This document shows, piece after piece, positions 6,322 to 57,158 of a DNA stretch of 64,000 bases. A program made the translations under genes and the position numbers. Each line of letters begins with the position of its first letter. Within the stretch, counting starts at the first letter, position 1. The notes below the pieces were generated by a model, which worked only from the letters and a program-made list of their open reading frames with translations, made no database searches and had not been told where the DNA came from. Source of the stretch: an uncultured Gemmatimonadota bacterium (GTDB lineage: Bacteria > Gemmatimonadota > Gemmatimonadetes > Palauibacterales > Palauibacteraceae); assembly GCA_964499635.1 (NCBI GenBank), contig CAZCLY010000013.1:62329-126328 (forward strand). Reading direction: 5' to 3'.

Positions 6322-6329
6322 AGGGCCTC

Positions 6330-38383: not shown

Positions 38384-38662
38384 GCGGCCTCTCGACCCGG
38401 ACGTCGGCTCCGGGGTTCATGATTCGCCATGTGGTCGTGGCGCAACAGCCGCGCGGGTCACGGATCGGCACCCGGACGATGCGGCAGGCGTCGTATCTCC
38501 CCGCCGCAGGGGACGCGCCCCTGCCCCCGCTACTACTGCCATGATGGCACGATCGTTGCCCCCCCAGGGCCGACTGGTTCGCACGCACGTCCGTAGCCTC
38601 CGGGAGGGGGAGGTGCGTGGTGTCCCGCCGGTCACGGAAAGACCCCTATCGACAGTGACGCC

Positions 38663-39802: not shown

Positions 39803-39833
39803 GACGCCCGGCAGGGGAAGGAACGGTCTCGCA

Positions 39834-42022: not shown

Positions 42023-42073
42023 GATGCCCCCCGTATCGACGGGACCCCGTTCCCTGCCGGTTCAGGCGAAGGC

Positions 42074-42832: not shown

Positions 42833-42857
42833 CCCGTGACCCGGTCGATCGCTCTCG

Positions 42858-43922: not shown

Positions 43923-43939
43923 GTGGAGCGTACCCTGGC

Positions 43940-44806: not shown

Positions 44807-46992
44807 AAGCCGTCATCCAGGACCTCGCGAACGGCGAGGTCCGGGTCGAAGAGGTCCCGCCTCCGCAGCTGCACCCCGGGGGCGTCCTCGTCCGCACCCG
44901 CCGGTCGCTGATCAGCCTGGGGACGGAGCGTGCCGTCATGTCCCTGGCCGGCAAGGGACCGATCGGCAAGGCCCGCGACCGGCCCGACCTCGCGCGCAAG
45001 GTCCTGAACAAGGCGAAGCAGGAAGGCTACTGGGGGACGTACAGAGTCGTGCGCAACCTGCTGGCCTCCCCCATTCCGCTCGGATACTCGTGCGCCGGGG
45101 AGGTCATCGCGGTCGGAGGCGAGGTCACGGAGCTGGTGGCCGGCGATCGAGTCGCGTGCGCCGGGCTCAACTTCGCGAACCACGCCGAGGTCAACTACAT
45201 CCCCCGCAACCTCGTCGTGAAGCTCCCCGCCGATCTCGACTACGATGCGGCTTCGTTCGTGACCGTGGGGACGATCGCCATGCACGGGGTTCGGCTGGCC
45301 GACCTGGCGCTCGGCGATGTGGTCGTCGTGATCGGGCTCGGGCTGGTCGGGCAGCTGGCGGCGCAGCTGGCGCGCGCCGGGGGCGCGACGGTCATCGCCA
45401 CCGACCTCGATCCGGACAAGTGCGAGCTCGCCCTCCGACTGGGGGCCCATCGGGCAAGCGCCGATCCCGGTCGGGTGCAGGAGCTGGTGCACGGCATGAC
45501 CGACGGCCACGGCGCGGACGCGGTGCTCGTGTGTGCCGCCGCCGAGTCCTCCGCGCCGCTGCGACAGGCCGTGAAGCTGTCGCGGATCCGCGGCCGCGTC
45601 GTCCTGGTGGGCGATGTCGGCATGGACCTGGAGCGTCGCCCCCTGTTCGAGAAGGAGGTGCGGCTGGTCGTGAGCCGCTCGTACGGCCCGGGACGCTACG
45701 ATCCCGCCTACGAGGTGCGCGGGGACGACTATCCGTACGAATACGTCCGGTGGACGGAGCGGCGGAACATGCAGGCGTTCATCGACCTGCTGGCGCGTGG
45801 CGACGTCGAGGTCGCCCCCCTGATCACGCACCGGTACGAGATCGACGCGGCCGAGAACGCCTACCGGACTGTGAAGGGGGCCGATGAAGACCCTCCCATC
45901 GGCATTCTGCTCCAATATCCGGGGGAGGAGGGGCGAACACGGGTCGTCCTCTCCGGGGGTCGCCCCGCCGCGCCCCCCGGGACGATTCGCCTCGGCGTGA
46001 TCGGCGCCGGACAATTCGCCAAGGGGGTGCTGCTTCCCGCCTTCGCGCGCTCGAACGACGTCCGGTTCGAGGGCTTCAGCACGGCCTCGGGCATCACCAG
46101 CCGGCGGGTGGCCGAACGGTTCGGGGCCGCGTTCTGTACATCGGATCCCGCGGAGATCATCGGGCACGACGCGATCGACGCGGTCGTGATCGCGACGCGC
46201 CACGACCGGCACGCGGGGCTGGCGATGGAAGCGCTGAGGTCGGGCAAGGCGGTGTTCGTCGAGAAGCCACTCGCGCTGGACGAGGACTCGCTCGCGGAGC
46301 TGTCCGAGGTGCTCGGGTCCTGCGAGAACCCGCGGCTCATGGTGGGCTTCAATCGCCGCTTCTCTCCACTGGCCGTCCGCTGCCGGGACTTCTTCCAGCC
46401 ACGGACCCGTCCCCTGAACGTCTCGTATCGGGTGAACGCGGGCGCCGTCGAACGGGGAAGCTGGGTCCTCGACCCGGTCGAGGGTGGGGGACGGATCATC
46501 GGCGAGGGGTGCCACTTCGTGGACCTGGTCTGCTACCTGACCGGCTCCATACCCGAACGCGTATCGGCGGCGAAGACGTCCGGCGGACGGGAGGCGGACC
46601 TGGATCCGGATGGCATCGCGATCACTCTGCGGATGGCCGACGGATCGGTGGGCGTCATCCACTATGCGGCGAACGGTGACCCGAGCCTGCCCAAGGAATA
46701 TTGCGAGGTGTTCGGAGGCGGACGCGTCGCCATCCTCGACAACTATCGCCGGGCCACTTTCCACGCCGGCAATCGGGCGAGGAAGAAGCGTCTGTGGAAT
46801 CAGGCGAAGGGTCATGCCGAGGAGGTGGAGGCGTTCTTGCGCGCGCTCCTGCGCGCCGAGCCCATGCCGATCGATCCGGGGACGCTGATCGCGGTGACCC
46901 AAACGACGTTCCTCGTCCACGAGAGCCTCGAAACGGGGCGCACGGTGGAGTATCGGTCGCCCCTCCGGCACTCCGCGCGAGGAGACGCTTGA
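44803..46992 (+). CDS. bi-domain oxidoreductase: N-terminal zinc-type MDR alcohol-dehydrogenase-like domain fused to a C-terminal Gfo/Idh/MocA NAD(P)-binding oxidoreductase domain
   Basis: GTG 44803 overlaps the upstream stop. MDR half: GYSCAGEVIAVG, VIGLGLVGQLAAQLARAGGATVIATD. Gfo/Idh/MocA half: IRLGVIGAGQFAKGVLLPAF, AVVIATRHDRHAGLAMEALRSGKAVFVEKP, GFNRRF. 729 aa. Confidence 0.8.
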   Translation: MKAVIQDLANGEVRVEEVPPPQLHPGGVLVRTRRSLISLGTERAVMSLAGKGPIGKARDRPDLARKVLNKAKQEGYWGTYRVVRNLLASPIPLGYSCAGEVIAVGGEVTELVAGDRVACAGLNFANHAEVNYIPRNLVVKLPADLDYDAASFVTVGTIAMHGVRLADLALGDVVVVIGLGLVGQLAAQLARAGGATVIATDLDPDKCELALRLGAHRASADPGRVQELVHGMTDGHGADAVLVCAAAESSAPLRQAVKLSRIRGRVVLVGDVGMDLERRPLFEKEVRLVVSRSYGPGRYDPAYEVRGDDYPYEYVRWTERRNMQAFIDLLARGDVEVAPLITHRYEIDAAENAYRTVKGADEDPPIGILLQYPGEEGRTRVVLSGGRPAAPPGTIRLGVIGAGQFAKGVLLPAFARSNDVRFEGFSTASGITSRRVAERFGAAFCTSDPAEIIGHDAIDAVVIATRHDRHAGLAMEALRSGKAVFVEKPLALDEDSLAELSEVLGSCENPRLMVGFNRRFSPLAVRCRDFFQPRTRPLNVSYRVNAGAVERGSWVLDPVEGGGRIIGEGCHFVDLVCYLTGSIPERVSAAKTSGGREADLDPDGIAITLRMADGSVGVIHYAANGDPSLPKEYCEVFGGGRVAILDNYRRATFHAGNRARKKRLWNQAKGHAEEVEAFLRALLRAEPMPIDPGTLIAVTQTTFLVHESLETGRTVEYRSPLRHSARGDA

Positions 46993-47015
46993 GCGCGGTC
47001 GACTGTGCGGCCCGC

Positions 47016-48656
47016 ATGTACTGGGATGCGATTCGGACCGAGGCTCCACGAGTCCTCGGCCTCATGGACCGGGAGGGCATGAGCCCGACTGCCGGTTGCT
47101 GCGACCGGAACTACTGGGCCTGGAAGTTCGTCGACTTTCCGGGCGCAAGGTTCCAGGAGTCGCTGTGCGCGCTGGCGTTCGTGTGGAGCGAGTCCGCGCC
47201 CGACAGCCCGTTCCGGGGGAGCCCGACGCTTCTGGAGTGGATCCACCTCGGCCTGGAGTTCTGGTGCGGCCTGCAACACCGCGACGGCAGCTTCGACGAG
47301 GCGTATCCGTTCGAGCGCTCGCTGGCCGCGACCGCCTTCACCACCTTCTACGTTTCGGAGGCGGTCGAGATGCTGGGGGACGCGATCCGCGACCACACCC
47401 GGGAGCGGGTCGTCGAAACCGTGCACGACGCCGGGCGGTGGCTGCTCGCCAACGACGAGTCGCACGGCGTGCTCTCGAACCACCTCGCGGCGGCCGCCGC
47501 GGCTCTCGCGCACGCCCACCGGCTCACCGGAGTGCGGGCGCTCGGGGACCGCAGTCGGTACTTCCTCGGCCTCATCCTGTCCCGTCAGTCCGACGAGGGG
47601 TGGTACGAGGAATACGGCGGGGCGGACCCCGGCTACCAGACGCACGGCAGCTTCTATCTGGCGCGCTGTCTCGAACTGGCGCCCGACGAGAACCTACGGC
47701 GGAGTCTGTATCGATCGGTGGACTTCATCGCCCACTTCGTGCACCCCGATCGCAGTCTGGGCGGCGAATACGCCAGCCGGAACACCAAGACCTACTATCC
47801 GGCCGCCTTCGAGATGCTGGCCGCCGAGCACGAGGGAGCGGCCTGGATCGCCGGACACATGCGGCCGGGTGTGGCGGTGGGCGCCGCGGCGAGCCTGCGC
47901 GGCATCGATGCATACAACTACTTCCCGTTCCTCAACAACTATGTGTTCGCGCTGCGAGCCTGCGCCGAGCGCGATGGGGATGGAGGGATGGCGCGGGATC
48001 CGACCCCCGGGAGCGGCTGCACGCGCTTTCCGGATGCCGGCCTCCTGAGGGTCCGGCGACCGAGCTACGAGCTGTTCATGGGGACGACCAAGGGCGGCGT
48101 GCTGAAAGTGTTCGACCGGTCGACCGGAGAGCTCCTGCTCTCCGACTGCGGGTACGTGGGCCGGCTGTCCGACGGGCGGCTGTGCTCGAGCCAGTACCTC
48201 GACCCCCGGCGGCCCGTCGAGACGCGCGATGACGAGGTCATCGTGGAAGGCTCCTTCATGGAGCTCGGTCGCCCCGCGATGACCCCCGCACGGTTCATCG
48301 GCTTCCGCCTGTTCAGCCTGACCGTGGGACGGGTTCCCCCTGTGGGGCGCTGGCTCAAGAGACTCCTGGTCCGTGTCCTCATCCACCGCAAGCGGCCGAT
48401 TCCGCTGCGCTTCGAGCGTCGCGTTCGGTTCGCGGAGGGCATCGTGGAAGTGGAGGATCGCATCGGGGGACCGGGGCTGGCGCGTCTCGAGAGATTGGAG
48501 TGGGCCCCGCTGCTGACCACGATCCACATGGGCTCTGCCCGCTACTACGTGGCCAACGAGCTCGCGAGCGGCGCGGAGCGCTCCATCGACCTGCGCGAGC
48601 TCGCGACGGGGGCTCCGCTGCGCCGCTCCGCCCGCCCCGTTCGCGCGGACGCCTGA
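47016..48656 (+). CDS. conserved hypothetical protein (547 aa), possibly an alpha/alpha-toroid polysaccharide-modifying enzyme (heparinase II/III-like)
   Basis: ATG 47016; an alternative TTG at 46989 overlaps the upstream stop. Protein-like throughout (WIHLGLEFWCGLQHRDGSFDEAYPFERS, DEGWYEEYGGADPGYQTHGSFYLARCLE). No family confidently recognised. Family assignment is a guess from neighbourhood and size. Confidence 0.5.
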   Translation: MYWDAIRTEAPRVLGLMDREGMSPTAGCCDRNYWAWKFVDFPGARFQESLCALAFVWSESAPDSPFRGSPTLLEWIHLGLEFWCGLQHRDGSFDEAYPFERSLAATAFTTFYVSEAVEMLGDAIRDHTRERVVETVHDAGRWLLANDESHGVLSNHLAAAAAALAHAHRLTGVRALGDRSRYFLGLILSRQSDEGWYEEYGGADPGYQTHGSFYLARCLELAPDENLRRSLYRSVDFIAHFVHPDRSLGGEYASRNTKTYYPAAFEMLAAEHEGAAWIAGHMRPGVAVGAAASLRGIDAYNYFPFLNNYVFALRACAERDGDGGMARDPTPGSGCTRFPDAGLLRVRRPSYELFMGTTKGGVLKVFDRSTGELLLSDCGYVGRLSDGRLCSSQYLDPRRPVETRDDEVIVEGSFMELGRPAMTPARFIGFRLFSLTVGRVPPVGRWLKRLLVRVLIHRKRPIPLRFERRVRFAEGIVEVEDRIGGPGLARLERLEWAPLLTTIHMGSARYYVANELASGAERSIDLRELATGAPLRRSARPVRADA

Positions 48657-48657
48657 T

Positions 48658-50589
48658 ATGTGCGGCATCTGCGGGTACGTGGGAATCCACGAGCCGGGGC
48701 TGCTTCGATCGATGACCGAGGCGATCGCGCACCGGGGTCCGGACGGGCAGGGGTGCTTCGCGGAGGAGGCCATCGGGCTCGGTCACCGGAGGCTGAGCAT
48801 CATCGACGTGGCGGGCGGTCAACAGCCGATCTTCAACGAGGATCGTTCGGTGGTGTTGATCGCGAACGGCGAGATCTACAACCACCGGGAGCTCCGTTCC
48901 GAGCTCGAAGCGAAAGGCCACCGCTTCCGCTCGCGGTCCGACTCGGAAGTTCTGGTCCACCTGTACGAGGAGGAGGGCCCGGAAGGCGTGCGGCGGTTGG
49001 GCGGGATGTACGCCTACGCCATCTACGATACGCGGGATCGCTCGCTGTTCCTCGCGCGCGATCGACTCGGCATCAAGCCCCTGTACTACGCGGACCTCCC
49101 GGGCGGCCGGTTCCTGTTCGCGTCGGAGAGCAAGTCGATTCTCCGCTACGGGGGACTCCGGCCGACCCTCGACCCCCGCGCCGTGCACGACTACCTGGCG
49201 CTGCGATACGTGCCCGGGCCGGGAGGGATGATCGCCGAGATCCGCAAGCTCCCGGCCGCGCATTGGGCGCGATACCGCGATGGACGCCTGGAGCTCAGGC
49301 GCTATTGGCAGCCCGAGCTGTACGAGGGCCCGTTCCCGTACCGGGACGAGGAGTACCTCGAAGGTTTCGCGCAGCGCTTCGAGATGAGCGTAGAGCGACG
49401 TCTGATGTCGGAGGTGCCCTTCGGCGCCTACCTGAGTGGCGGGCTCGACTCGAGCGTCATCGTCGCCGCCATGGCGGCGCGCGTCTCGACCCCGGTCCGC
49501 ACGTTCGCCGTCGGGTTCGACTATGCGCACGACGAGCTCGCGGCGGCGTCCGAGACCGCCCGCCTGCTGGGGTGCGAGCACACCGAGATCGCCTGCACGA
49601 TCGACGACATCGAGCTGCTCCCCGACCTCGTGTACCATCTGGACGAGCCGCTCGGCGATCCCATCGTGATCCCCATGCACCGCCTCGCGCGGACGGCCAA
49701 GAGCCACGTCACCGTGATCCAGGCCGGGGAGGGAGCGGACGAGATCCTCGGCGGCTATCTGTTCCACAAGGCCCTGTTGGGTGGCTGCCGACTGAATCGG
49801 GCCGTGCCCGGCTTCATTCGCCGCGGCCTGCTCGGCCCAGCGCTGCGGGCGACCCCGGCCCGCGTCCTGAACCTCGCGTTCAGCTACCCGGCGGCGTTGG
49901 GTGGGCGCGGCAAGCAGAAGCTGCTGGACTACCTCGATCTCACGGGTGCCGACCGGCTTCCGGAGGCGTATCGGCACCTGATCTCGCTGTTCGACGCGCG
50001 CGATGTCGAGGCGCTCTACGCGAACGAGTTCGAGCGGGCCCTCGGCGATGCACCGCCACACGAACTCGCGTCGCCCGACGGTGCGGCCCCGTACCTGAAC
50101 CGCATCCTGCACCTCCAGTTCGCGCACTGGCTCCCGGACGACATCCTCATGAAGCAGGACAAGATGTCGATGGCCAGCGGCGTCGAGGTGCGGGTTCCCT
50201 TCCTCGACCACGAGCTCGTCGAGTACGTGCTTCGCGTCCCCCCGCGCCTCAAGATCCGGGGTCTGACGTCGAAGCACCTGCTGCGCCGCTACGCGTCGCG
50301 AGTCCTCCCCGATCGGATCGTTCGGCGCCGCAAGATGCCGTTCTATCTCCCGCTCGAGAAGTACGCCCGACACCCGACCTTCCTGGCGTTCGTGGACGAG
50401 ACGCTCTCGGAGAAGACGGTGAGGGAGCGGGGGCTGTTCCGGCCGGCCGGGGTGCAGGCTCTCCGTGACCGGGCCGTGGGCGGAGAGTTCGTGTACGTCA
50501 AGCAGCTCTTCAGCCTGGTGGTGCTCGAGCTGTGGATGCGGGGGGTGTTCGACCGGTCGGGCCGGACGGGCGCGAGGCGAGCGGGATGA
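48658..50589 (+). CDS. asnB: asparagine synthetase B-type glutamine amidotransferase
   Basis: N-terminal MCGICG nucleophile Cys. GATase-2 domain. SGGLDSS PP-loop. 643 aa. Starts 1 nt after the upstream stop. Confidence 0.9.
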   Translation: MCGICGYVGIHEPGLLRSMTEAIAHRGPDGQGCFAEEAIGLGHRRLSIIDVAGGQQPIFNEDRSVVLIANGEIYNHRELRSELEAKGHRFRSRSDSEVLVHLYEEEGPEGVRRLGGMYAYAIYDTRDRSLFLARDRLGIKPLYYADLPGGRFLFASESKSILRYGGLRPTLDPRAVHDYLALRYVPGPGGMIAEIRKLPAAHWARYRDGRLELRRYWQPELYEGPFPYRDEEYLEGFAQRFEMSVERRLMSEVPFGAYLSGGLDSSVIVAAMAARVSTPVRTFAVGFDYAHDELAAASETARLLGCEHTEIACTIDDIELLPDLVYHLDEPLGDPIVIPMHRLARTAKSHVTVIQAGEGADEILGGYLFHKALLGGCRLNRAVPGFIRRGLLGPALRATPARVLNLAFSYPAALGGRGKQKLLDYLDLTGADRLPEAYRHLISLFDARDVEALYANEFERALGDAPPHELASPDGAAPYLNRILHLQFAHWLPDDILMKQDKMSMASGVEVRVPFLDHELVEYVLRVPPRLKIRGLTSKHLLRRYASRVLPDRIVRRRKMPFYLPLEKYARHPTFLAFVDETLSEKTVRERGLFRPAGVQALRDRAVGGEFVYVKQLFSLVVLELWMRGVFDRSGRTGARRAG

Positions 50590-52322
50590 GTGCGCCGGCG
50601 CTTACGCGGCCGCGCGGGCCGCTCGTCGGGCTCGCCCTGGGGGCGTTCGCGTGCTACGCGCCGGGCTTCTGGTGGGGGGCGCCGCACGCCACGTCTGCGG
50701 ACAGGGTCCGGCCCTGGGGTGTCGACGACGAGACCCCGCTCGGCACGCTCGGACAGGTCGCGGACATCGTCGCGCCGCGACCCCGCCGCAATGCCGGCTA
50801 CCCGAAGATGCACGCGCTCATGTCGACCGCCGCGATGGCCCCCTACATCGTGTGGAGCCGGGCGACGGGTCGGATGTCGGGGTTCGACGACGAGTACCCG
50901 TTCGGGTTCGCCGACCCGGTGACCGGGATCGAACGGCTCTCGAACGTCGCGCACCTGCTCTCCGTCCTGCTGGGCGTGGGGATCGTGCTGGCCGCGTTCG
51001 ATGTGGGGCGTGTGCTGTGGACACCGGGGACCGGCGTCCTGTCGGCATCGTTCGCTGCGGTGGTCTTCCCGATGTTCTACTACGCCCGCACCGGCAACGT
51101 GGACGTGCCGATGTTGTTCTTCATAGCCCTGGCCCTGTCCGCCTATGTCCGGGCGTTGCGCGGTGGGGTCACTGCGCGCCGCGCGGTGTGGGCGGGGATC
51201 TGGATCGGGCTTGCGGTCGCGACGAAGGAATCCGCGTTCGGCGCCGTGGCCCCCATCCCGCTCGTCATGGCGTGGATCGCGGTCCGGAATCCCGCCGAGG
51301 CCGCGCCCGACGGCATCCGGAAGCCGCTCTTGTGGGGTGGCCTCGCGTGCGTCCTCGCCTACGGTCTCGGCAGCGGGCTGTTCCTGGATCCGGGCTGGTA
51401 CATCGATCACGTCCGATTCCTGCTGGCCCGGACCGCCACCGTGGCCCGGGAGGGCGAGGGGGTCGTTCGGAGCTACCCACGTACCTTGTCCGGCGACCTC
51501 GCCTACCTGGGTGCGGGGGGTCGGTATCTGGTCTCCGCCATGAACCCCGTGATCTTCGGGCTGGGGGCGGTCGGGGTGGCGCTGGGGCTTCGCGAGCGTC
51601 GCACGCGACTGCTGCTGATCCCGGCGTTGGGATACGCGATCTTCATGTTCCTCACGGTCCGCACGCTTCAGCTCCGCTACGTGCTGCCATTCGCGTACGT
51701 GCTCGCGATCCTCGCCGGCGGGGCGGTGGCATCCGCGTGGCGCTCCGATCGCGCGTGGCTGCGAATAAGCGCCATCGCGGCGGCCACCACCGGTCTGGGG
51801 ATCGGGCTCCTGTGGGGTGGCGAGCTCACGTACGAGATGGTGCGTGACTCCCGGAACGACGCGGCCCGATGGCTGGCCGCGAGGACCGAGAGCGGGGACC
51901 GGGTCGCCTACTTCGGGCCCATCCAGAAGCTGCCGCCCCTCGAGCGCGGTGTCGTCTCCGACCAGTCCGCTCCCTTTGAGGGGATGTGGGCCACGCGTCC
52001 GGATGACGCCGTCGCGCCGAGGAAGATCCTGGATCACTGGGAGCGAACGCGGCCCGCCTTCGTCATCGTCATGCCGGACCACGTCAGCTATCCGGGCGTG
52101 CCACACAACATCACGCTGCCGCCCGAGCTCTTCGACGCCCTCGAGGCGGGCGCCACGCCCTTCCGGCCGGTCGCCCGATTCCGGACGGAGCCGCTCCTTC
52201 CGTGGACGGGCATGCCGGCGCTCGACTACCCGACCGTCAATCCGACGATTCGGATCTACGAGCGAGTCGATGGAGCGGCGCGAGCCCACGGAGGGGACCG
52301 GCCACCCGGGGGTGGACGTTGA
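50586..52322 (+). CDS. glycosyltransferase family 39-like (GT-C fold, PMT/ArnT-type polyprenyl-phosphate-sugar-dependent transferase)
   Basis: ATG overlaps the asnB stop (ATGA). 10+ TM segments. N-terminal periplasmic-loop DE-type motif region (GVDDETPLG). Large hydrophilic C-terminal domain. Layout typical of GT39/GT83. Confidence 0.75.
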   Translation: MSAPALTRPRGPLVGLALGAFACYAPGFWWGAPHATSADRVRPWGVDDETPLGTLGQVADIVAPRPRRNAGYPKMHALMSTAAMAPYIVWSRATGRMSGFDDEYPFGFADPVTGIERLSNVAHLLSVLLGVGIVLAAFDVGRVLWTPGTGVLSASFAAVVFPMFYYARTGNVDVPMLFFIALALSAYVRALRGGVTARRAVWAGIWIGLAVATKESAFGAVAPIPLVMAWIAVRNPAEAAPDGIRKPLLWGGLACVLAYGLGSGLFLDPGWYIDHVRFLLARTATVAREGEGVVRSYPRTLSGDLAYLGAGGRYLVSAMNPVIFGLGAVGVALGLRERRTRLLLIPALGYAIFMFLTVRTLQLRYVLPFAYVLAILAGGAVASAWRSDRAWLRISAIAAATTGLGIGLLWGGELTYEMVRDSRNDAARWLAARTESGDRVAYFGPIQKLPPLERGVVSDQSAPFEGMWATRPDDAVAPRKILDHWERTRPAFVIVMPDHVSYPGVPHNITLPPELFDALEAGATPFRPVARFRTEPLLPWTGMPALDYPTVNPTIRIYERVDGAARAHGGDRPPGGGR

Positions 52323-52381
52323 CCAGAACGACTTCGGACGATCCGAGGGCGGGTCGCGAAGCGACGGAGAGACGTAGAGAG

Positions 52382-53461
52382 ATGAGCATGAGAACCAATC
52401 CCGTGGTAGACATTCCGGGGCCCATGGCGACCCCCGGCGAAGCGGCCGTGGACGTGTCCGTCGTGTGCCCCTTCTACAATGAGGAGAAGATCCTCGAGTC
52501 CGCGGTGCGGCGACTGTTGGCACGTCTGGAAGCGATGGAGGAGTCGTGGGAGCTGCTCATTGTCAACGACGGCTCGACGGACGGTTCGGGCGAGATCGCG
52601 GCGCGGCTCGCTGCGGGGCACGAACGCCTCCGATGTGTGGGATACACGACCAACCGCGGGCGCGGGTACGCGCTCAGAACGGGAATCGGGGCGGCCCGGG
52701 GAGCCGTCGTGATCACCACCGAGATCGATCTCTCCTGGGGCGAGGACATCGTCGAGCGGCTCCTCGCCGCAATGAACGAGTGGCCCGATGCCGACATCGT
52801 CGTCGCGAGTCCGCATCTGCCGGGCGGCGGGTACAGGAACGTGCCCGGCAAGCGGGTCTTCCTGAGCAGGTTCGGGAATCACGTGATCCGGGCCTGCATG
52901 TCGCAGGCCGTCACGATGAACACGGGTATGACGCGCGCGTACCGACGCGGAGTGATCCGCTCGCTGCCCCTTCGCGAGGATCGCAAGCAGTTTCATCTCG
53001 AGGTCCTGCTCAAGGCGACCGCGCTCGGCTACCGCGTACGCGAGATCCCCACGGTCCTCGAGTGGCTGGAGTACAAGCATGAGGGTCGGCGGGTGAAGCG
53101 GAAGAGCGCGTCGCAGCTCCGACCGGTCATCAAGTCGCACACCCTGTTCAGCCTGTTCGCCGAGCCGCTGCGGTACGTGTGGGCCATGAGCCTGGCCGCG
53201 TTGTTCGTCGGCATGACCTCGCTGGTGTGGGCGATCGTGCTCACGGCCCAGGGCGAGGTGTCCGTGTACATGGCCCTGCTGAGCGTGCTGATGGTCATCC
53301 TGTCGATCGTGCTGTTCGTGCTCGGCGTGGTCCTCCAGCAGGGGAACGCGATCCAGCGGGAGCTGTGGATGACCCAGCGCCAGCTCAACCGCCTGCCGGG
53401 GATGTCGGAGGCGGACGAGCGCGTGCGGGACGCCTCTCCCCCGCCGCCCCCCCGGGCGTGA
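52382..53461 (+). CDS. glycosyltransferase family 2 (polyprenyl-phosphate sugar synthase type, DPM1/ArnC/GtrB-like) with C-terminal TM helices
   Basis: GT-A signature VSVVCPFYNEE, LLIVNDGSTDGS, DxD-like ITTEIDLS. Two C-terminal TM helices (LAALFVGMTSLVWAIVL, ALLSVLMVILSIVLFVLGVVL). GGAGAG RBS. Confidence 0.85.
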   Translation: MSMRTNPVVDIPGPMATPGEAAVDVSVVCPFYNEEKILESAVRRLLARLEAMEESWELLIVNDGSTDGSGEIAARLAAGHERLRCVGYTTNRGRGYALRTGIGAARGAVVITTEIDLSWGEDIVERLLAAMNEWPDADIVVASPHLPGGGYRNVPGKRVFLSRFGNHVIRACMSQAVTMNTGMTRAYRRGVIRSLPLREDRKQFHLEVLLKATALGYRVREIPTVLEWLEYKHEGRRVKRKSASQLRPVIKSHTLFSLFAEPLRYVWAMSLAALFVGMTSLVWAIVLTAQGEVSVYMALLSVLMVILSIVLFVLGVVLQQGNAIQRELWMTQRQLNRLPGMSEADERVRDASPPPPPRA

Positions 53462-53497
53462 GGGAGGCGACGGGGGGCCGGTGCTCCCCGCTCTCGT

Positions 53498-53860
53498 CTA
53501 CGGCGGCTCCGGGACGAACAGCGGCCGCACCGCCACGTACCACCCGAGCTCCTCGCCCATGCGGCCGGCGGGGTGGAGGGACGCGAGCTCGACCGCCTCC
53601 TCCAGGTCGTCGGCCTCGACGACGAACACGCCACCGATCTCCTTCGACTCGATGAACGGCCCGTCGGTGATCAGGCGCTCTCCGCCCCGGCTGCGCACGA
53701 TCCTGCCGCCTCCCGCGAGGCCCGCGTACAGCTGCACGCGCTCGTCGGCCGCGAGCTCCTCGTCGTACGCGCGGCAGCGATCCATGTAGACCTGCCGCTC
53801 CTCCTCGGTCAGCTTCTCCCACGCCGATCCGTCCCCACAGGCCAGGCACAGGTACTTCAT
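53498..53860 (-). CDS. YCII-related domain protein
   Basis: ATG 53860 after GGAGGAGG; overlaps the stop of the upstream VOC gene (ATGA). Profile MKYLCLACGDGSAWEKLTEEERQVYMDRCRAYDEEL...LITDGPF.E.KE..GG....EA.DL.EA.E.A...P. The 60 upstream codons of the track ORF are not protein-like. Confidence 0.75.
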   Translation of the reverse strand: MKYLCLACGDGSAWEKLTEEERQVYMDRCRAYDEELAADERVQLYAGLAGGGRIVRSRGGERLITDGPFIESKEIGGVFVVEADDLEEAVELASLHPAGRMGEELGWYVAVRPLFVPEPP

Positions 53861-54276
53861 CCGTCCTCCTCCGCCAGGTTGCCGTTGATGATCCACGCGG
53901 TCCCGTAGCGGTCGACGAGCATGCCGAAGCGCTCGGCCCAGAAGGTCCCCTGTATGGGCATCTTCACGTCGGCCCCATCCGCGAACGCGGCGAAGATGCG
54001 CTCGGCATCGGCGGCCCCGTCGACGTTGAGCGCCACCCACATGGTCCGCGACGTGCCGTCGCCCGGAGGCGGTCCGTCGGAGCCGTACAGCTCGGCGCCG
54101 CCGGCGATCAGCCGGGCGTGCATGATCCCGCGGTGGGACTCCGGCGGCATCTCGCTCGCCATCGGCGACTCGCCGTACGTCAGGATCCCGGTGATCTCGC
54201 CGCCCAGGACGTCACGGTAGAACTCGAACGCCTCCCGGCAGCGCCCATCGAAGTTGAGGTATGGAATGGACCGCAT
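53857..54276 (-). CDS. VOC-family (glyoxalase/PhnB-like) protein
   Basis: ATG 54276 after GGGAGA. PhnB-like profile: MRSIPYLNFDGRCREAFEFYRDVLGGEI ... GTFWAERFGMLVDRYGTAWIIN. Confidence 0.75.
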   Translation of the reverse strand: MRSIPYLNFDGRCREAFEFYRDVLGGEITGILTYGESPMASEMPPESHRGIMHARLIAGGAELYGSDGPPPGDGTSRTMWVALNVDGAADAERIFAAFADGADVKMPIQGTFWAERFGMLVDRYGTAWIINGNLAEEDG

Positions 54277-54494
54277 GGCTCGTCTCCCGTGGTTCCGGAT
54301 GTGGATACGGGCCGGCGGAGGGACGGCGTGTGGCCCGCCGCCGACGTTCTTCACTCCATGGTCGAGCGGAGGGAGACGGATTCGACAGCCGGCACTCGGC
54401 CGCCGGGCAGCTAGATGCGAAGGGCCTCGTATCTCCGGCGTCGCGACCCCACCCGCGCCGCGTCGGAGGGGGCGCGCCGTCTACGGGACCGGAG

Positions 54495-54860
54495 TCAGCC
54501 GCGCCAGCGCGAGCCGTCCGGGACGAGCGGGCGGACCTCCATCACCCCGCCCACGGCGAGCGTCGGGAAGCGGGCGGCGATCTCGGTCGCCTCCGAGAGG
54601 TCGCCGCACTCGATGAGGTGGTAACCCCCGAGGTGCTCCTTGGTCTCCATGAAGGGGCCATCGGTCACGGGCGCCCGGCCATCGTGACGGACCGTACGGC
54701 CCATGGCGGCGGGCTGGAGCTTGGCGGTGGCCAGGTGGCGGCCGGTGCGATCGAGATCGTCGAGCACGGCGTGGTACTCGTCCATGATCGCTTCGCGCTC
54801 GAACCTCGGGATCGCTTCCCACGCCTCCTCGTTGAACCGGCACAAGAGCAGATACTGCAT
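54495..54860 (-). CDS. YCII-related domain protein
   Basis: ATG 54860 after GAGGAG, 13 nt downstream of the sigma-factor stop. MQYLLLCRFNEEAWEAIPRFEREAIMDEYHAVLDDL...VTDGPFMETKEHLGGYHLIECGDLSEATEIAARFP. Confidence 0.75.
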   Translation of the reverse strand: MQYLLLCRFNEEAWEAIPRFEREAIMDEYHAVLDDLDRTGRHLATAKLQPAAMGRTVRHDGRAPVTDGPFMETKEHLGGYHLIECGDLSEATEIAARFPTLAVGGVMEVRPLVPDGSRWRG

Positions 54861-54873
54861 CGGGTCTCCTCGA

Positions 54874-56232
54874 TCACTCGTTGGTGTCGTCCGTCGTCGC
54901 CTCCCCGGCGACCCCCGCCAGCCTTCCCTCGAGAAATGCGCGCTGCGACGCCTCTCCGGTGAGCTCGAGGGCACGTCGATAGGCGTCGGCCGCCTCGGCA
55001 TTCCGCCCGAGCCGGCGGCACAGATCCGCCCTCGTCGCGTGAGCCAGGCGATATTCGGCGAGCTCGCCCGACTCGAGCAACTCGTCGACGGCCTCGAGAC
55101 CGGCCGCGGGTCCGTCGCGCATGGCGACCGCCACCGCCCGGTTGAGCGCCACCACGGGCGAAGGCTCGATCCGGAGCAGCAGGTCGTAGAGCGCCGTGAT
55201 CTGGGTCCAGTCGGTGTCTGCCACCGAGGGCGCCTCGGCGTGCACCGCCGCGATGGCCGCCTGGAGCGTGAACGGGCCGAACCGGCGCGACGACAGCGCC
55301 CGCTGCACCAGGGTGGCTCCTTCCTCGATGAGCCCCCGGTCCCAGCGCGACCGGTCCTGATCCTCGAGCAGCACGAGACTGCCCGCCGGGGTCGTGCGGG
55401 CCGGCCGGCGGGCTTCGTGGAGGAGCATCAGGGCGAGGAGTCCCTCCACCTCGGGCTCGGGCAGGAGCTCGACGAGCAGGCGGCCCAACCGGATCGCCTC
55501 GTCGCTCACATCGGGACGGGTGAGCCCGTCCCCCGCCGAGGCGAAGTAGCCTTCGTTGAACACGAGGTATACGACGCGCAGCACGGTGTCGAGCCGCTCG
55601 GGGAGCTCGGCGCGCGCGGGCACCTCGTACGGGATGCCGGCGTCGCGGATCTTCGACTTGGCGCGCACGATGCGCTGCGCCAGCGTCGGCGTGCGGAGCA
55701 GGAAGGCGTGCGCGATCTCCTCGGTCGTGAGGCCACACACCTCCCGGAGCGTGAGCGCGATGCGCGCGTCGGCCGACAACGCGGGGTGACAGCAGGTGAA
55801 GATCAGACGCAGGCGATCGTCCACCAGACCGCTGTCATCGTCCAGACGCTCGGCCACCTCGTCGCCATCGGGCGTCTCGAGCCGGAACTGGTGGACGATC
55901 TCGGCCTCGGTGCGCGCGTCGTCGAGCTTCGATCGGCGGCGTAGCCGGTCGATCGCCCGGAAGCGCCCGGCCGAGATGAGCCAGCCGCGCGGGTTGCCAG
56001 GGATGCCGTCGCGCGGCCAGGTGCGGAGCGCCGCCTCGAAGGCATCGTGCAGGGCCTCCTCGGCGAGGTCGAAGTCGCCCAGCAATCGGATGAGGGTGGC
56101 GAGCACGCGCCGGGATTCATTCCGATAGACCTCCTCCACCGCGTCGTGCACCGGGGAGGCATCCGTGTCGCGCGCCGGGGTGTCGGCGGCCGGACGGGCC
56201 GGGTCGCGCGCACGGGAGGATCCGGATCTCAT
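54874..56232 (-). CDS. ECF-type RNA polymerase sigma factor with C-terminal DUF6596-like domain
   Basis: ATG 56232 after AGGGA. Sigma-70 region 2 (RVLATLIRLLGDFDLAEEALHDAFEAALRTW) and region 4 (ALTLREVCGLTTEEIAHAFLLRTPTLAQRIVRAKSKIR). Long helical C-terminal extension. 452 aa. Confidence 0.8.
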   Translation of the reverse strand: MRSGSSRARDPARPAADTPARDTDASPVHDAVEEVYRNESRRVLATLIRLLGDFDLAEEALHDAFEAALRTWPRDGIPGNPRGWLISAGRFRAIDRLRRRSKLDDARTEAEIVHQFRLETPDGDEVAERLDDDSGLVDDRLRLIFTCCHPALSADARIALTLREVCGLTTEEIAHAFLLRTPTLAQRIVRAKSKIRDAGIPYEVPARAELPERLDTVLRVVYLVFNEGYFASAGDGLTRPDVSDEAIRLGRLLVELLPEPEVEGLLALMLLHEARRPARTTPAGSLVLLEDQDRSRWDRGLIEEGATLVQRALSSRRFGPFTLQAAIAAVHAEAPSVADTDWTQITALYDLLLRIEPSPVVALNRAVAVAMRDGPAAGLEAVDELLESGELAEYRLAHATRADLCRRLGRNAEAADAYRRALELTGEASQRAFLEGRLAGVAGEATTDDTNE

Positions 56233-56289
56233 GGCGTGTTTCCCTGGGTGTGCGGAACGACCGCTCGCGGAAGGTGGCGGGTGTCCCGA

Positions 56290-56631
56290 CCATCTACCCG
56301 ACCTCGGCCGCGGCGTTTCCCGAGGACCTCGGATCGGCCGGATCTCGATGCTCCCCGCCCGTCCGGACGGGAGCCCGGCGGCCAGCCGAATCGCCTCGTT
56401 GAGGTCGCGCGCCTCCACCACGAGCACGCGGCTCAGATGCTCGCCGCCGTTCGTCGCGGGTCCGTCGGTCGTGATGGGTCGGCCCACGCGGACGCGGACG
56501 GTCGTGGCCGCACGCACGGAGTGCAGTGGCTCCGCGCTCACCAGGTGACCGCTGCGGCCCAGCTCGGCCTCGCAAGCGTCGGATTCGAATCGACACGTGG
56601 TGGATCGGGCCCGACCCGATTCGCACGCCAT
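56290..56631 (-). pseudogene. remnant of a YCII-domain gene, start-less, fused in-frame to the 5' end of the sigma-factor ORF
   Basis: Upstream in-frame codons of the track ORF 54874..56631 read VRVGRPITTDGPATNGGEHLSRVLVVEARDLNEAIRLAAGLPSGRAGSIEIRPI. This matches the C-terminal half of the YCII proteins at 53498 and 54495 (VTDGPFMETKEHLGGYHLIECGDLSEATEIAARFP...VMEVRPL). No proper N-terminal half or start. Confidence 0.3.
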
Positions 56632-56786: not shown

Positions 56787-56804
56787 CAGGCCAGGAGACA
56801 CGCT

Positions 56805-57158
56805 ATGGCCAGTTCGAGCCCCGAGCCGCCGTTCAAGATCACGCCGATCGTGCTTCACGTCCTGCTGTCGCTCGGCGACGACGAGGCGCACGGGTACGCG
56901 ATCATGGTCGAGGTGACCGCGCGCACGGGCGGGCGGGTGAAGATCGGGCCCGGCTCCCTGTACTTCACCTTGAGCCGGCTGGCCGACGCCGGGCTCATCG
57001 AGGAGGTGGAGGATGGGGGAGGGGACGACGAACGCCGGCGTACCTACCGTTTGACCCCGTACGGGCGCTCCATCCTCGTGTCGGAGCTCGAGATGATGTC
57101 CGACATCGTCCGCTCGGCCCGCGACAAGCGGCTGCTGCGCGACGCGAGCGCCGCCTGA
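56805..57158 (+). CDS. PadR-family transcriptional regulator
   Basis: ATG 56805 after AGGAG. PadR signature ITPIVLHVLLSLGDDEAHGYAIMVEV......GRVKIGPGSLYFTLSRLADAGLIEE.......RRRTYRLTPYGR. The stop is 3 nt before the ADOP start. Confidence 0.85.
   Translation: MASSSPEPPFKITPIVLHVLLSLGDDEAHGYAIMVEVTARTGGRVKIGPGSLYFTLSRLADAGLIEEVEDGGGDDERRRTYRLTPYGRSILVSELEMMSDIVRSARDKRLLRDASAA

Follow-up and report, generated by a model that had tools for sequence, protein, structure and literature searches.

Results

The window, i.e. the whole 64,000-nucleotide stretch of DNA analysed here, harbors an 11-gene operon (38663-53461, +) with intergenic spacing of -23 to +71 nt and three 4-nt overlaps; the genes beyond it (YCII and glyoxalase) lie on the opposite strand. 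Its last two genes encode a GT-C-fold membrane glycosyltransferase of the PMT_2 superfamily (50586-52322, +) and a GT2 (52382-53461, +), and they are indeed the adjacent, same-strand pair that an earlier sequence-only reading had linked to polyprenyl-phosphate-sugar dependent periplasmic glycosylation. The operon context, with its flippase-like gene and sugar-tailoring set, was absent from that account.

The GT-C gene starts with an ATG at 50586 that overlaps the stop codon of the asparagine-synthase-like gene (ATGA, -4 nt); its 578-aa product has also been called, in identical form, in public assemblies (P0001), and its third-position GC of 0.88 is what true genes show in this window of 70% GC. 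Pfam analysis yielded matches to PMT_2 (1.9e-10) and, marginally, to PMT (2.1e-5; 24.7 bits vs. a cutoff of 22.7). The architecture initially proposed, about 10 TM helices followed by a large C-terminal domain, held for the domain but undercounted the helices: hydropathy revealed ~9-10 strong hydrophobic segments, and the AF2 model, which is confident, comprises ~13 membrane helices followed by an extracytoplasmic alpha/beta domain of ~150 aa (residues ~420-560). A first-loop acidic motif, suggested earlier as a check on this assignment, is present as D47-D48-E49 (codons at 50724-50732, +), ~16 residues past TM1, with the model placing it between TM1 (helix 10-24) and a loop helix (52-62). D47 and D48 were invariant in an alignment of 43 homologues; among 74 homologous segments from 68 loci, D47 was kept in all 74 while position 48 was D or E in 69. 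Based on this conservation and on the model, the motif is the predicted catalytic site. All significant structural matches were GT-C glycosyltransferases rather than members of an unrelated membrane family, but the more specific label "GT39-like" was not borne out because the fold is about equally near GT22, GT39, GT83 and GT66, with ALG12 scoring above the PMTs, and ArnT and STT3 about equal to them. A sequence-based profile search with the family detected no solved GT-C, and comparison with NCBIfam gave a weak match to TIGR03663 "Agl23" (6.1e-4). Homologues carry the public annotation "glycosyltransferase family 39", and a Chloroflexota orthologue is extended at its C-terminus by a region that weakly matches a GH30 beta-sandwich.

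The GT2 gene starts 59 nt past the GT-C gene, with GGAGAG preceding the start, and encodes a product of 359 aa that includes the strings VSVVCPFYNEE and LLIVNDGSTDGS and matches Glycos_transf_2 in Pfam (1.1e-25). Its closest solved relatives in a PDB sequence search were ArnC (3.9e-15), GtrB (4.2e-14) and DPM synthase (6.2e-11), with the GtrB alignment spanning residues 20-319, both TM helices included; ArnC was likewise the top NCBIfam match (66.9 bits vs. a cutoff of 529), with PgfS, a Dol-P hexose transferase and PpgS among the best of those that followed. The two C-terminal TM helices recognized earlier (residues 264-291 and 295-325; 53171-53356, +) accompany a GT-A domain, were found as strongly hydrophobic segments (hydropathy peaks of 2.14 and 3.14), correspond to the TM pair of GtrB in the alignment and are kept in GT2 orthologues. 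With these relatives and no QxxRW motif found on scanning the GT2 sequence, its placement in the DPM1/ArnC/GtrB class is upheld. A processive polysaccharide synthase was also considered and is ruled out on the same two grounds. Where the canonical motif reads DADLQ (canonical GT2 motifs are quoted in PMC12690121), the protein has E114-I-D116-L-S, a variant DXD (E114-I115-D116; codons at 52721-52729, +) that aligns with the DAD of ArnC and GtrB, and TTE(I/A)DLSWG is conserved among 17 GT2 orthologues. ArnC R128 and GtrB R122 have been proposed to bind the phosphate of the acceptor; at the aligned position the window protein has no Arg (local sequence ASPH), with R151, the R137 equivalent, as the sole one of the two proposed phosphate-binding Arg residues retained. 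Given the variant DXD and the lost R128/R122 equivalent, undecaprenyl phosphate (Und-P) is a plausible but not certain acceptor.

The operon begins with a non-hydrolysing UDP-GlcNAc 2-epimerase of the WecB type (38663-39802, +; Pfam Epimerase_2 4.9e-99), scoring 291.6 bits against TIGR00236 wecB, which exceeds the cutoff of 210. A UPF0104 / LPG_synthase_TM membrane protein follows (39780-40844, +; Pfam PF03706 2e-31, above cutoff), with ~7-8 hydrophobic segments; it belongs to the PplT/AglD2/YbhN family, which takes in the flippase domain of MprF as well as the proposed flippases HexF, GpgF and AglD-C (PMC5898192, PMC10128005, PMC12713373), and is a candidate flippase. Overlapping this gene by 4 nt is that of a DegT/DnrJ/EryC1-family sugar aminotransferase (40841-42022, +; PF01041 9.5e-27), WbpE/ArnB-like, with weak NCBIfam matches to DesI, PseC and ArnB. 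Next are a class I SAM-dependent methyltransferase (42077-42832, +; Methyltransf_11 1.3e-22) and a FemAB-like GNAT acyl/aminoacyl transferase (42858-43922, +; Acetyltransf_6 1.8e-13), the latter with TIGR03019 pepcterm_femAB as its top NCBIfam match (6.4e-49; 166.8 bits vs. a cutoff of 260), a family also matched by VimA (PMC7468200). A CE4 polysaccharide deacetylase with a putative VimE/ArnD-like role (43940-44806, +; Polysacc_deac_1 8.4e-19; top NCBIfam TIGR03006 7.7e-23, below cutoff) showed no hydrophobic segment or signal peptide at its N-terminus. It is followed by a WbpB-like bi-domain oxidoreductase joining MDR and Gfo/Idh/MocA domains (44803-46992, +; ADH_zinc_N 3e-20, GFO_IDH_MocA 4.9e-20), whose NCBIfam matches include UDP-GlcNAc 3-dehydrogenase (1.5e-13), and by a cytoplasmic (alpha/alpha)-toroid plus beta-sandwich protein with a polysaccharide lyase/uronyl epimerase fold (47064-48656, +); for this protein the precomputed Pfam match to PF25840 Ulvan_lyase_N is weak, the AF2 model has a pLDDT of 80.6, and Foldseek matched PL8/PL15/PL17 lyases and dermatan-sulfate epimerase 1 (E ~1e-6 to 4e-8). 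The last of the set is a WbpS-like, asparagine-synthase-family glutamine amidotransferase (48658-50589, +; Asn_synthase 7.3e-92 plus GATase_7), predicted to convert a carboxylate to an amide, with TIGR03108 XrtA/PEP-CTERM amidotransferase as its top NCBIfam match (1.2e-153; 513 bits vs. a cutoff of 817). Signal peptides were found in none of the tailoring enzymes. By Pfam, NCBIfam and annotation, genes for a phosphoglycosyltransferase, Wzx/Wzy, Wza/Wzc or any further GT are absent from the cluster, leaving GT2 to GT-C as the only exit route. Since the operon has no equivalents of WbpA and WbpD and its XrtA-associated NCBIfam matches are all below cutoff, the identity of the sugar is a guess only.

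In 44 of 68 genome loci, a polyprenyl-phosphate-type GT2 is encoded no more than 10 kb from the GT-C homologue, as it is in 28 of the 38 fully flanked loci (at least 8 kb on both sides of the homologue), vs. a rough estimate of a few percent for a random 20-kb neighborhood; this pairing is far above chance. In about a quarter of the fully flanked loci, a GT2 of this kind is missing from the 10 kb around the homologue. The GT2s fall in two non-orthologous lineages. The orthologue of the window GT2 occurs in 17 loci (50-68% identity), mostly directly adjoining the GT-C gene and mostly in the order AsnB-GT2-GT-C, vs. AsnB-GT-C-GT2 in the window, while a different DPM1-like GT2 (top PDB match DPM synthase, 1.8e-23) is found in the same cluster at 27 further loci. 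Adjacency is kept across phyla and in both gene orders. In a reverse look-up from GT2 orthologues, a GT-C gene lay immediately downstream in 3 of 4 long contigs, with one of the three not homologous to the window GT-C family; such non-orthologous replacement of both GT2 and GT-C argues that the pairing is functional and not accidental. In addition, 32 of the 68 related loci have a PF03706 homologue, which often comes right behind the GT-C gene, and in most related loci the lyase-fold gene adjoins AsnB. One Longimicrobiales genome groups the flippase-like, FemAB, deacetylase and GT2 genes, with GT-C absent within 10 kb. The GT-C and GT2 genes form a genuine pair that is conserved. What the analysis establishes directly is the presence of the genes, their families, fold and motifs, and the conservation of their linkage.

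Discussion

Our data support a polyprenyl-phosphate-sugar dependent periplasmic glycosylation step, with a GT-C that carries the acidic motif and resembles no unrelated membrane family, and a GT2 distinct from processive synthases. Most likely, the GT2 charges a lipid carrier in the membrane with a sugar that the GT-C moves to an extracytoplasmic target in the cell envelope. We think it probable that the GT2 makes, and the GT-C uses, the donor of a three-component extracytoplasmic glycosylation system, with the pair closing the 11-gene operon and the UPF0104 protein as a candidate third component that would flip the lipid-linked sugar. In such a pathway, cytoplasmic enzymes (the WecB-type epimerase, Gfo/Idh/MocA oxidoreductase, DegT, methyltransferase, FemAB/VimA-like, AsnB/WbpS-like and lyase/epimerase-fold proteins) would convert UDP-GlcNAc to a tailored amino sugar that is probably a derivative of the uronic-acid or uronamide type; the membrane-anchored GT2 would move this sugar, or a precursor of it that is N-acetylated, off its nucleotide and onto Und-P at the inner leaflet; the CE4 deacetylase may expose an amine, as with ArnD and VimE; the UPF0104/MprF-type protein would flip the polyprenyl-P-sugar; and the GT-C, via its D47-D48 loop, would pass the sugar, at the outer side of the inner membrane, to an acceptor in the envelope. 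What we infer from these genes is each catalytic step, which lipid is the carrier, what the sugar is and in which order the steps occur.

Three-component periplasmic glycosylation is an established paradigm (PMC11127046), with GtrA/GtrB/Gtr*, C. youngae ORF15/ORF14/ORF12 and PgfS with the GT-C proteins PgfM1/PgfM2 as named comparators. As in these systems, the genes of a polyprenyl-phosphate glycosyltransferase, a (candidate) membrane translocator and a GT-C lie together, the alignment of the GT2 with GtrB spans its full length, including two TM helices, and the GT-C keeps an acidic residue in the loop past TM1. Unlike them, the candidate flippase is of the UPF0104/MprF type and not GtrA, SMR or MATE, the operon holds eight sugar-modifying enzymes and has no O-antigen locus next to it, E-I-D replaces D-A-D in the GT2, and the GT-C has no sequence-detectable solved relative. 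The same three families form an archaeal triad of UPF0104, PMT/STT3-like arCOG00563 and an AglD-like GT2 (Makarova et al. 2015; PMC5898192). That triad is itself only predicted and its carrier would be dolichyl phosphate; in contrast to the window, AglD fuses the GT2 and UPF0104 domains and the triad is devoid of a Wbp/Vim-like tailoring set. It is with the linking-sugar pathway (WbpB/E/I/S, VimE and VimA) of Porphyromonas gingivalis and Tannerella forsythia that the operon shares the Gfo/Idh/MocA, DegT, 2-epimerase, AsnB-family, CE4 and FemAB-like families, WbpS and VimA being reported in TIGR03108 and TIGR03019, the families of the top matches of the AsnB-like and FemAB-like proteins, respectively. 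However, the operon contains neither WbpA nor WbpD, the NCBIfam scores are below cutoff, and no T9SS or sortase was seen in the 64-kb window. In addition, the predicted glycosyltransferases of P. gingivalis A-LPS are WbaP, GtfC, GtfF and VimF, taken to be a cytoplasmic Und-PP route, whereas the window has only the Pren-P-type GT2 and the GT-C.

The Arn pathway (ArnB, ArnC, ArnD, ArnE/F, ArnT), to which LgmABC, FlmF2/FlmK/NaxD and PpgS/Rv3779 are related, follows the order here proposed from genes, namely transfer of an N-acylated amino sugar to Und-P by a GT2, deacylation, flipping and GT-C transfer; it also shares a many-TM GT-C with a C-terminal periplasmic domain, a DegT protein, and ArnC as the top PDB and NCBIfam match of the GT2. 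By the same mechanism, the acceptor could be lipid A or the LPS core, in an Arn/Lgm/Flm-type cationic modification conferring resistance to cationic peptides. We deem this unlikely. The Arn-like set (ArnB-like DegT, PF01522 deacetylase, GT2 with ArnC as best match and GT-C of ArnT-like architecture) is in its favor, to which ArnD, a deacetylase-family deformylase, would be a parallel of the PF01522 enzyme; so are the formyltransferase gene added in type-B relatives, ArnA having a formyltransferase domain, and the sulfatase-family genes flanking the cluster in relatives, the sulfatase superfamily taking in EptA and LtaS. Nevertheless, all scores against the Arn models are far under their equivalog cutoffs, ArnA is absent, and ArnT, ArnA and ArnD models gave no match at the sequence level. 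A lipid A acceptor is not indicated. The amidotransferase and lyase/epimerase-fold proteins suggest a sugar of the uronic-acid type and not Ara4N, GlcN or GalN, and these genes together with the FemAB-like and methyltransferase genes imply a sugar that differs from that of Arn and is more elaborate. The weak GH30 region of the Chloroflexota orthologue also hints at a glycan acceptor; Chloroflexota are generally not known to carry LPS.

In a synthase-deacetylase-flippase (SDF) glycolipid pathway, the GT2, CE4 deacetylase and UPF0104 protein may instead make and flip an amino-glycolipid as end product, a membrane lipid that modifies charge, with the GT-C acting separately or only extending the lipid, a reading we regard as improbable. 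The operons HexSDF of C. difficile and GpgSDF of P. aeruginosa have experimental support; each combines a glycosyltransferase with a deacetylase and a UPF0104 flippase-like protein and yields aminohexosyl glycolipids by deacetylating an N-acetyl sugar on lipid, a step the window CE4 enzyme would parallel; the Longimicrobiales locus, the variant DXD and the missing phosphate-binding Arg also fit. In those systems, however, the synthases HexS and GpgS are annotated as MGDG-synthase-like and GT4 and not as ArnC/GtrB-class GT2, the acceptors are phosphatidylglycerol or glycosyl-diradylglycerol, the glycolipid is itself the end product and a GT-C is not involved, whereas the window GT2 matches GtrB end to end, TM hairpin included, a GT-C directly adjoins the GT2 in most type-A loci as well as in 3 of 4 reverse look-ups, and seven further tailoring enzymes exceed the needs of a simple GlcN-lipid. 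It is more doubtful still that the GT-C is an oligosaccharyltransferase, ligase or polymerase using a polyprenyl-diphosphate oligosaccharide made elsewhere, with the GT2 as an anchored cytoplasmic transferase adding the sugar of the cluster to an Und-PP-glycan. While GT2s working on Und-PP-glycans are common, neither the operon nor its conserved relatives encode a phosphoglycosyltransferase, Wzx or other GT, no STT3-family Pfam match on GT-C was reported at E <= 0.01, the nearest relatives of the GT2 are all polyprenyl-monophosphate transferases, and two independent Pren-P GT2 lineages accompany the GT-C. Transfer to protein Ser/Thr, as in Ppm1/Pmt (GT39)-type O-glycosylation, would retain the mechanism and is consistent with the marginal PMT match, the family 39 annotation of homologues and the loop-1 D-[D/E] motif, but it seems very improbable: the PMT match spans only part of the model, PMT_4TMC and MIR are absent from the GT-C Pfam matches at E <= 0.01, ALG12 outscores the PMTs with ArnT and STT3 about level, and the context is one of sugar tailoring, not a Ppm1-Lnt type of arrangement.

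For the three-component system that we favor, the leading guess for the acceptor is a glycan, e.g. LPS or another envelope polysaccharide. The best reading of the operon is a putative three-component periplasmic glycosylation system that would deliver a modified amino-uronic sugar. The mechanism is already known; as the pair closes an 11-gene operon apparently building an unusual amino sugar, it is a further example of that mechanism.

The GT-C and GT2 genes

GC content is ~70% throughout the window, and real reading frames were picked by third-position GC. The two adjacent, co-directional genes of the sequence-only reading were both found on the + strand, with the quoted sequence strings present: the membrane transferase gene (GT-C) spans 50586-52322 and encodes 578 residues, its ATG overlapping the upstream stop by 4 nt, and the GT2 gene spans 52382-53461 (359 residues), beginning 59 nt after the GT-C gene with GGAGAG in front. 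Identical products have been called for both in public assemblies (P0001 for GT-C and P0241 for GT2). In Pfam, GT-C matched PMT_2 (1.9e-10), with an additional marginal and partial match to PMT, and GT2 matched Glycos_transf_2 (1.1e-25). A second copy of GT-C, GT2 or the flippase-like gene was not found within the window.

Fold and family of the GT-C protein

An AlphaFold model of GT-C, built from an alignment of 43 full-length homologues (39-57% identity, mostly Gemmatimonadota), reached a pLDDT of 89.3 and a pTM of 0.91. The model comprises ~13 membrane helices, rather than the ~10 counted from sequence, and an alpha/beta domain of ~150 residues after the last of them. Foldseek returned ALG12, ALG9, STT3, AglB, ArnT, DPY19, Pmt4, PglB and AftA as best matches, and the significant structural matches were GT-C glycosyltransferases without exception, which speaks against an unrelated membrane family. 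On the basis of these matches, we assign the fold to GT-C (A-type) and see no preference for GT39. The predicted topology is deduced from this similarity in fold, as positive-inside loop counts gave no decision. The motif W44-G-V-D47-D48-E49-T-P51 follows TM1 (helix 10-24) and precedes a loop helix (52-62), thus supplying the first-loop acidic motif, D47-D48-E49, that the sequence-only reading had proposed to look for. Neither D47 nor D48 varies across the 43 aligned sequences; among 74 homologous segments (orthologues and paralogues from 68 genome loci), D47 is present in all, and 69 carry D or E at position 48. Additional invariant residues, namely N171 in YYARTGNVD (with a nearly invariant D173), K214/E215 in ATKE, H275 and R364/Y365, may, judging by conservation, contribute to the donor-phosphate and acceptor site.

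The GT-C family is remote in sequence from everything solved: a single-sequence search of solved structures yielded only a 68-residue stretch of ALG12 (4.3e-4), the 43-sequence profile gave no GT-C match at all among solved structures, and NCBIfam returned only a weak match to the archaeal 'Agl23' model. With respect to the proposed GT39 likeness, an acidic D-D-E motif is present, the match to the PMT model PF02366 (24.7 bits vs. a cutoff of 22.7) covers only positions 86-204 of 245, and neither a PMT-specific C-terminal module (PMT_4TMC) and/or MIR domain nor a specific structural affinity to PMTs was found. Likewise, GT-C did not fall within the ArnT models of GT83, and the L-Ara4N context (ArnA, ArnD) was lacking. 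For these reasons we do not file GT-C under GT39 or GT83, and we regard the 'GT39' and 'ArnT family' annotations carried by its homologues as not specific. An HMM search of 1.84 billion cluster representatives (clusters at 50% identity) recovered 547 clusters at E <= 1e-30, mainly from Gemmatimonadota and also from MAGs labelled Acidobacteriota, Chloroflexota, Nitrospirota and Myxococcota; the family is real, modest in size and mostly environmental.

Class and variant motifs of the GT2 protein

The closest solved relatives of GT2 are ArnC (3.9e-15), GtrB (4.2e-14) and the DPM synthase of P. furiosus (6.2e-11), which are the three polyprenyl-phosphate glycosyltransferases of known structure, and the GtrB alignment (GT2 residues 20-319 vs. 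GtrB residues 23-309) covers both TM helices. Hydropathy and this alignment give GT2 an N-terminal GT-A domain and a C-terminal TM hairpin, with strong hydrophobic segments at residues 264-291 and 295-325. The polyprenyl-phosphate GT2 class has been described as comprising a GT-A domain, juxtamembrane helices and a C-terminal TM hairpin (PMC12690121). By alignment, GT2 shares the architecture of the GtrB/ArnC/DPMS class and, at family level only, fits the role of a polyprenyl-phosphate glycosyltransferase; the earlier placement in the DPM1/ArnC/GtrB class, with two C-terminal TM helices, was thus borne out. NCBIfam ranked ArnC first and PgfS next, followed by Dol-P hexose transferase, AglJ and PpgS, all far under their equivalog cutoffs. 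A processive synthase of the PgaC, NodC or cellulose-synthase type was ruled out because the PgaC match is restricted to the N-terminal nucleotide-binding part (residues 22-144), the QxxRW motif is absent from GT2, and there is no channel-forming membrane domain, only two TM helices.

ArnC, GtrB and DPMS share DADLQ(N/D/H), with the first Asp as the proposed catalytic base (PMC12690121). When aligned to ArnC and GtrB, the DXD-aligned site of GT2 (52721-52729, + strand) reads T-E114-I-D116-L-S-W, and TE(I/A)DLSW is kept in 17 GT2 orthologues, with Glu for the first Asp and Ser for Gln constituting a conservative, non-canonical variant. Among the basic residues proposed to hold the acceptor phosphate (R128 and R137 in ArnC; R122 and K132 in GtrB), GT2 keeps the R137 equivalent as R151, but the position of ArnC R128/GtrB R122, an Arg in DPMS too, is A142 within 'VVASPH', of which 'ASPH' (142-145) is conserved in the 17 orthologues. 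The RAYRR motif is retained. We read GT2 as a distinct subfamily with an ExD motif inside the polyprenyl-phosphate class, as its alignment suggests. Owing to the variant DXD and the lost Arg position, we place less confidence in undecaprenyl phosphate as the GT2 acceptor; TE(I/A)DLSW together with 'ASPH' could be a sign of a different lipid acceptor or of altered metal/nucleotide geometry.

Pairing of GT-C and GT2 across relatives

Scanning one genome per species, we recovered 68 loci with GT-C relatives. An orthologue of the window GT2 (50-68% identity) was present in 17 of these, usually directly beside GT-C but in the order AsnB-GT2-GT-C vs. AsnB-GT-C-GT2 in the window (AsnB being the asparagine-synthase-type amidotransferase). 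Another 27 loci, mainly from Gemmatimonadaceae, carry a different, shorter GT2 with a single C-terminal helix (type-B loci). Among solved structures this protein is closest to DPM synthase (1.8e-23), its NCBIfam matches are PgfS, ArnC and PpgS, and it reads 'ASRY' at the R128-equivalent position. Of 38 loci flanked by 8 kb or more on each side, 28 have one of the two GT2 types within 10 kb of GT-C, and about a quarter have no such GT2 within that distance. In the reverse check, starting from GT2 orthologues on long contigs, a GT-C gene was immediately downstream in 3 of 4: a 34% orthologue in Vicinamibacterales, a 46% orthologue in Limnocylindrales and a non-homologous PMT-type GT-C in Blastocatellales. 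Such variation in gene order, together with the exchange of either partner for a non-orthologous one, is expected if donor maker and donor user are functionally related.

Several loci differ in layout. In most Gemmatimonadaceae relatives (type-B loci, e.g. L010-L012, L021, L026 and L028, and L020 at 7131-7979), the non-orthologous one-helix DPM1-like GT2 replaces the two-TM GT2, a gene for a UPF0104 protein (PF03706/LPG_synthase_TM, MprF-type) is directly 3' of GT-C, and a formyltransferase gene is added (L020 2899-3744), which we take to be comparable to the formyltransferase domain of ArnA. On a 4.67-Mb Longimicrobiales chromosome, UPF0104, FemAB, deacetylase and GT2 genes form one block (L073 6907-11029), and no GT-C gene lies within 10 kb of it; the orthologue of GT-C is ~2.2 Mb off (L001), where its neighbors are a Polysacc_synt (Wzx-like) gene and a second paralogue of GT-C.

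The operon and its flanks

GT-C and GT2 lie at the 3' end of an 11-gene same-strand cluster (38663-53461, +) with spacings of -23 to +71 nt and three 4-nt overlaps. The order is as follows: 1) a WecB-type UDP-GlcNAc 2-epimerase scoring above the NCBIfam equivalog cutoff; 2) a UPF0104/LPG_synthase_TM membrane protein (PF03706, 2e-31); 3) a DegT aminotransferase; 4) a SAM methyltransferase; 5) a FemAB-like GNAT protein; 6) a CE4 deacetylase; 7) an MDR plus Gfo/Idh/MocA bi-domain oxidoreductase; 8) a lyase/epimerase-fold protein (47064-48656); and 9-11) AsnB, GT-C and GT2. Neither signal peptides nor TM segments were found in the products of genes 3-9. The whole module, with its order shuffled, recurs in MAGs labelled Gemmatimonadota, Nitrospirales, Planctomycetota, Myxococcota-type 'Deltaproteobacteria', Acidobacteriota and Chloroflexota. 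An ordinary EPS or O-antigen locus was rejected because no priming phosphoglycosyltransferase, Wzx/Wzy, Wza/Wzc or further glycosyltransferase is encoded in or beside the operon. Scanning 38000-54500 yielded 0 promoter-like and 4 terminator-like sites vs. 4.5 expected, a result that is uninformative at 70% GC.

The product of gene 8 has an (alpha/alpha)-toroid plus beta-sandwich fold, its model matching PL8, PL15 and PL17 lyases and dermatan-sulfate epimerase 1, with no local Pfam-A match and a weak precomputed match to PF25840. It is cytoplasmic, has a mean column identity of 64% over 32 homologues with many invariant acidic and aromatic residues, and across nearly all related loci its gene is a direct neighbor of the AsnB-like one. 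A lyase/epimerase fold that lacks a signal peptide and is encoded within a biosynthetic operon is puzzling; the protein may act as a uronyl epimerase on a sugar linked to a nucleotide or a lipid.

The flanks are unrelated to the operon (MacB-type permeases, an ECF sigma factor, YCII). The opposite strand directly downstream (53498-56631, -) carries two genes of the YCII family, one glyoxalase-like gene and one for an ECF-type sigma factor whose C-terminal domain is DUF6596; just upstream is a truncated DUF6596/TPR ORF (37985-38383, -). The window also contains four large MacB_PCD+FtsX permease genes at 12476-15319 (+), 17388-20033 (-), 35028-37814 (-) and 57162-59864 (+), with PadR-family regulator genes adjoining two of them (20030-20395 beside the second and ~56800-57158 upstream of the fourth), a conventional ABC exporter (33146-35008) and an ABC ATPase (23801-24655). 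An AAA-ATPase gene (5134-6351, -) lies between two genes (2573-5035 and 6990-9332, both +) in each of which a Ser/Thr protein kinase is fused to a long TPR array, and another TPR protein is encoded at 20453-22342. Two ORFs, at 10003-11553 (+) and 16275-17123 (-), have coding-like GC3 and no Pfam family at E <= 0.01; the former (516 aa) has a weaker codon-position signal (GC3 of 0.78) and may be mis-framed. The window contains no tRNA genes.

Comparison with the Wbp/Vim and XrtA gene sets

In P. gingivalis, the Wbp/Vim pathway leads to 2-N-seryl-3-N-acetylglucuronamide via WbpB, WbpE, WbpI, WbpS, VimE and VimA (PMC7468200). The families of all six occur in the operon, matched by family only: WbpB (Gfo/Idh/MocA), WbpE (DegT), WbpI (2-epimerase), VimE (CE4), VimA (TIGR03019) and WbpS (TIGR03108). 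Among the operon genes there are no equivalents of WbpA (UDP-GlcNAc 6-dehydrogenase) and WbpD (3-N-acetyltransferase), and the operon holds neither a UDP-glucose/GDP-mannose dehydrogenase-family gene nor a WbpD-type acetyltransferase gene, the latter type being of the hexapeptide-repeat kind. The comparison leaves the methyltransferase and the MDR domain of the oxidoreductase unassigned. The NCBIfam scores are under cutoff (167 vs. 260 for TIGR03019, 81 vs. 276 for TIGR03006 and 513 vs. 817 for TIGR03108), and no exosortase was found in the annotated neighborhoods of the window operon and its relatives. For these two reasons, the FemAB, deacetylase and AsnB genes were not accepted as members of the XrtA/PEP-CTERM set.

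Discussion

In the established three-component paradigm of periplasmic glycosylation (Kelly et al. 2024, PMC11127046), a polyprenyl-phosphate glycosyltransferase works together with a flippase and a GT-C enzyme, and all three roles have candidate genes in the operon. As modelled, the transferase is of the GT-C fold with the conserved extracytoplasmic loop after TM1 expected of the third component. The flippase candidate is the UPF0104 protein, whose gene is found in the window operon and in 32 of the 68 related loci; in contrast, characterized three-component systems rely on flippases of the GtrA, SMR or MATE type (PMC11127046). The UPF0104 family includes the flippase domain of MprF and is the proposed flippase in the synthase-deacetylase-flippase (SDF) operons HexSDF and GpgSDF and in archaeal AglD (PMC5898192, PMC10128005, PMC12713373), and in archaea UPF0104 has been described in one neighborhood with a PMT/STT3-like protein and an AglD-like GT2 (PMC5898192). 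From the observed gene content, folds, motifs and linkage, we infer the following chemical steps: a modified amino-uronic sugar would be made from UDP-GlcNAc and loaded by GT2 on undecaprenyl phosphate; the lipid-linked sugar may be deacetylated at the membrane; the UPF0104 protein would then flip it, and GT-C would pass the flipped sugar to an envelope acceptor. In its working, such a system would resemble the Gtr/Arn-type three-component systems.

The same genes could be read in other ways. GT2, the deacetylase and the flippase-like protein could make an SDF-type aminoglycolipid as end product, a reading that the Longimicrobiales block lacking a nearby GT-C and the variant phosphate-binding residues of GT2 support; the class of GT2 and the pervasive adjacency of GT-C argue against it. 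The presence of STT3, PglB and AglB among the structural matches of GT-C raises the prospect that its donor could be an Und-PP-oligosaccharide; on the other hand, priming or assembly genes for such a donor are not present. As regards the acceptor, an Arn-like transfer to lipid A and a Pmt-like transfer to protein are both possible, but we found no specific support for either.

In our proposed scheme of GT2 loading, flipping and GT-C transfer, the hints on the acceptor, albeit weak, together lean to a glycan. Sulfatase-family genes (~600 aa) flank the module in relatives, in tandem beside it (L072 11855-19115, with four in a row; L074 1-2209; L020 898-2832); the L020 copy has its sulfatase domain from ~residue 222, leaving a long N-terminal region before it, as in LtaS/EptA/OpgB-type phospho-transferases (the sulfatase superfamily includes LtaS and EptA). 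These proteins may decorate the same acceptor. In Limnocylindrales (Chloroflexota), a GT-C orthologue of 46% identity (L076 11111-14080) has an extra C-terminal ~430 aa with a weak GH30 beta-sandwich match (5.8e-5), which may hint at a glycan acceptor, and downstream of it are a second PMT_2 gene, a second GT2 and a UPF0104 gene. Lastly, tandem GT-C paralogues, two or three per genome with 29-36% identity (L043 6455-11662; L039, L030, L031, L048, L054 and L001/L035), suggest successive extracytoplasmic transfers that build or decorate a glycan.

We also entertained a more specific reading, which we deem improbable: the product of the operon would be a Wbp/Vim-type 'linking sugar', an N-aminoacylated diamino-uronamide carried on polyprenyl phosphate and placed periplasmically on an envelope glycan by GT-C, with its free amine anchoring secreted proteins covalently via a sortase-like enzyme, e.g. 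an exosortase. If true, the FemAB, deacetylase and amidotransferase genes of PEP-CTERM-type loci, long enigmatic, would gain a biochemical function, and the operon would constitute the first bacterial three-component system using an MprF-type flippase.

Each element is known and the overall mechanism is textbook knowledge, and homologues have already been annotated as 'GT39/ArnT family'. To our knowledge, no characterized system combines Wbp/Vim-like tailoring genes with an MprF-type flippase candidate and delivery by GT2 and then GT-C; a literature search on this gene combination or on Gemmatimonas envelope glycans found nothing specific. The operon joins two separately studied themes, three-component periplasmic glycosylation and Wbp/Vim-like (XrtA-locus-like) tailoring, the products of the latter being known from few organisms only, and it nominates the UPF0104/MprF-type protein as a flippase for polyprenyl-phosphate-linked sugar. 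If our model is right, the operon would represent an uncharacterized and moderately widespread pathway of envelope modification in groups of bacteria with almost unknown surface chemistry.
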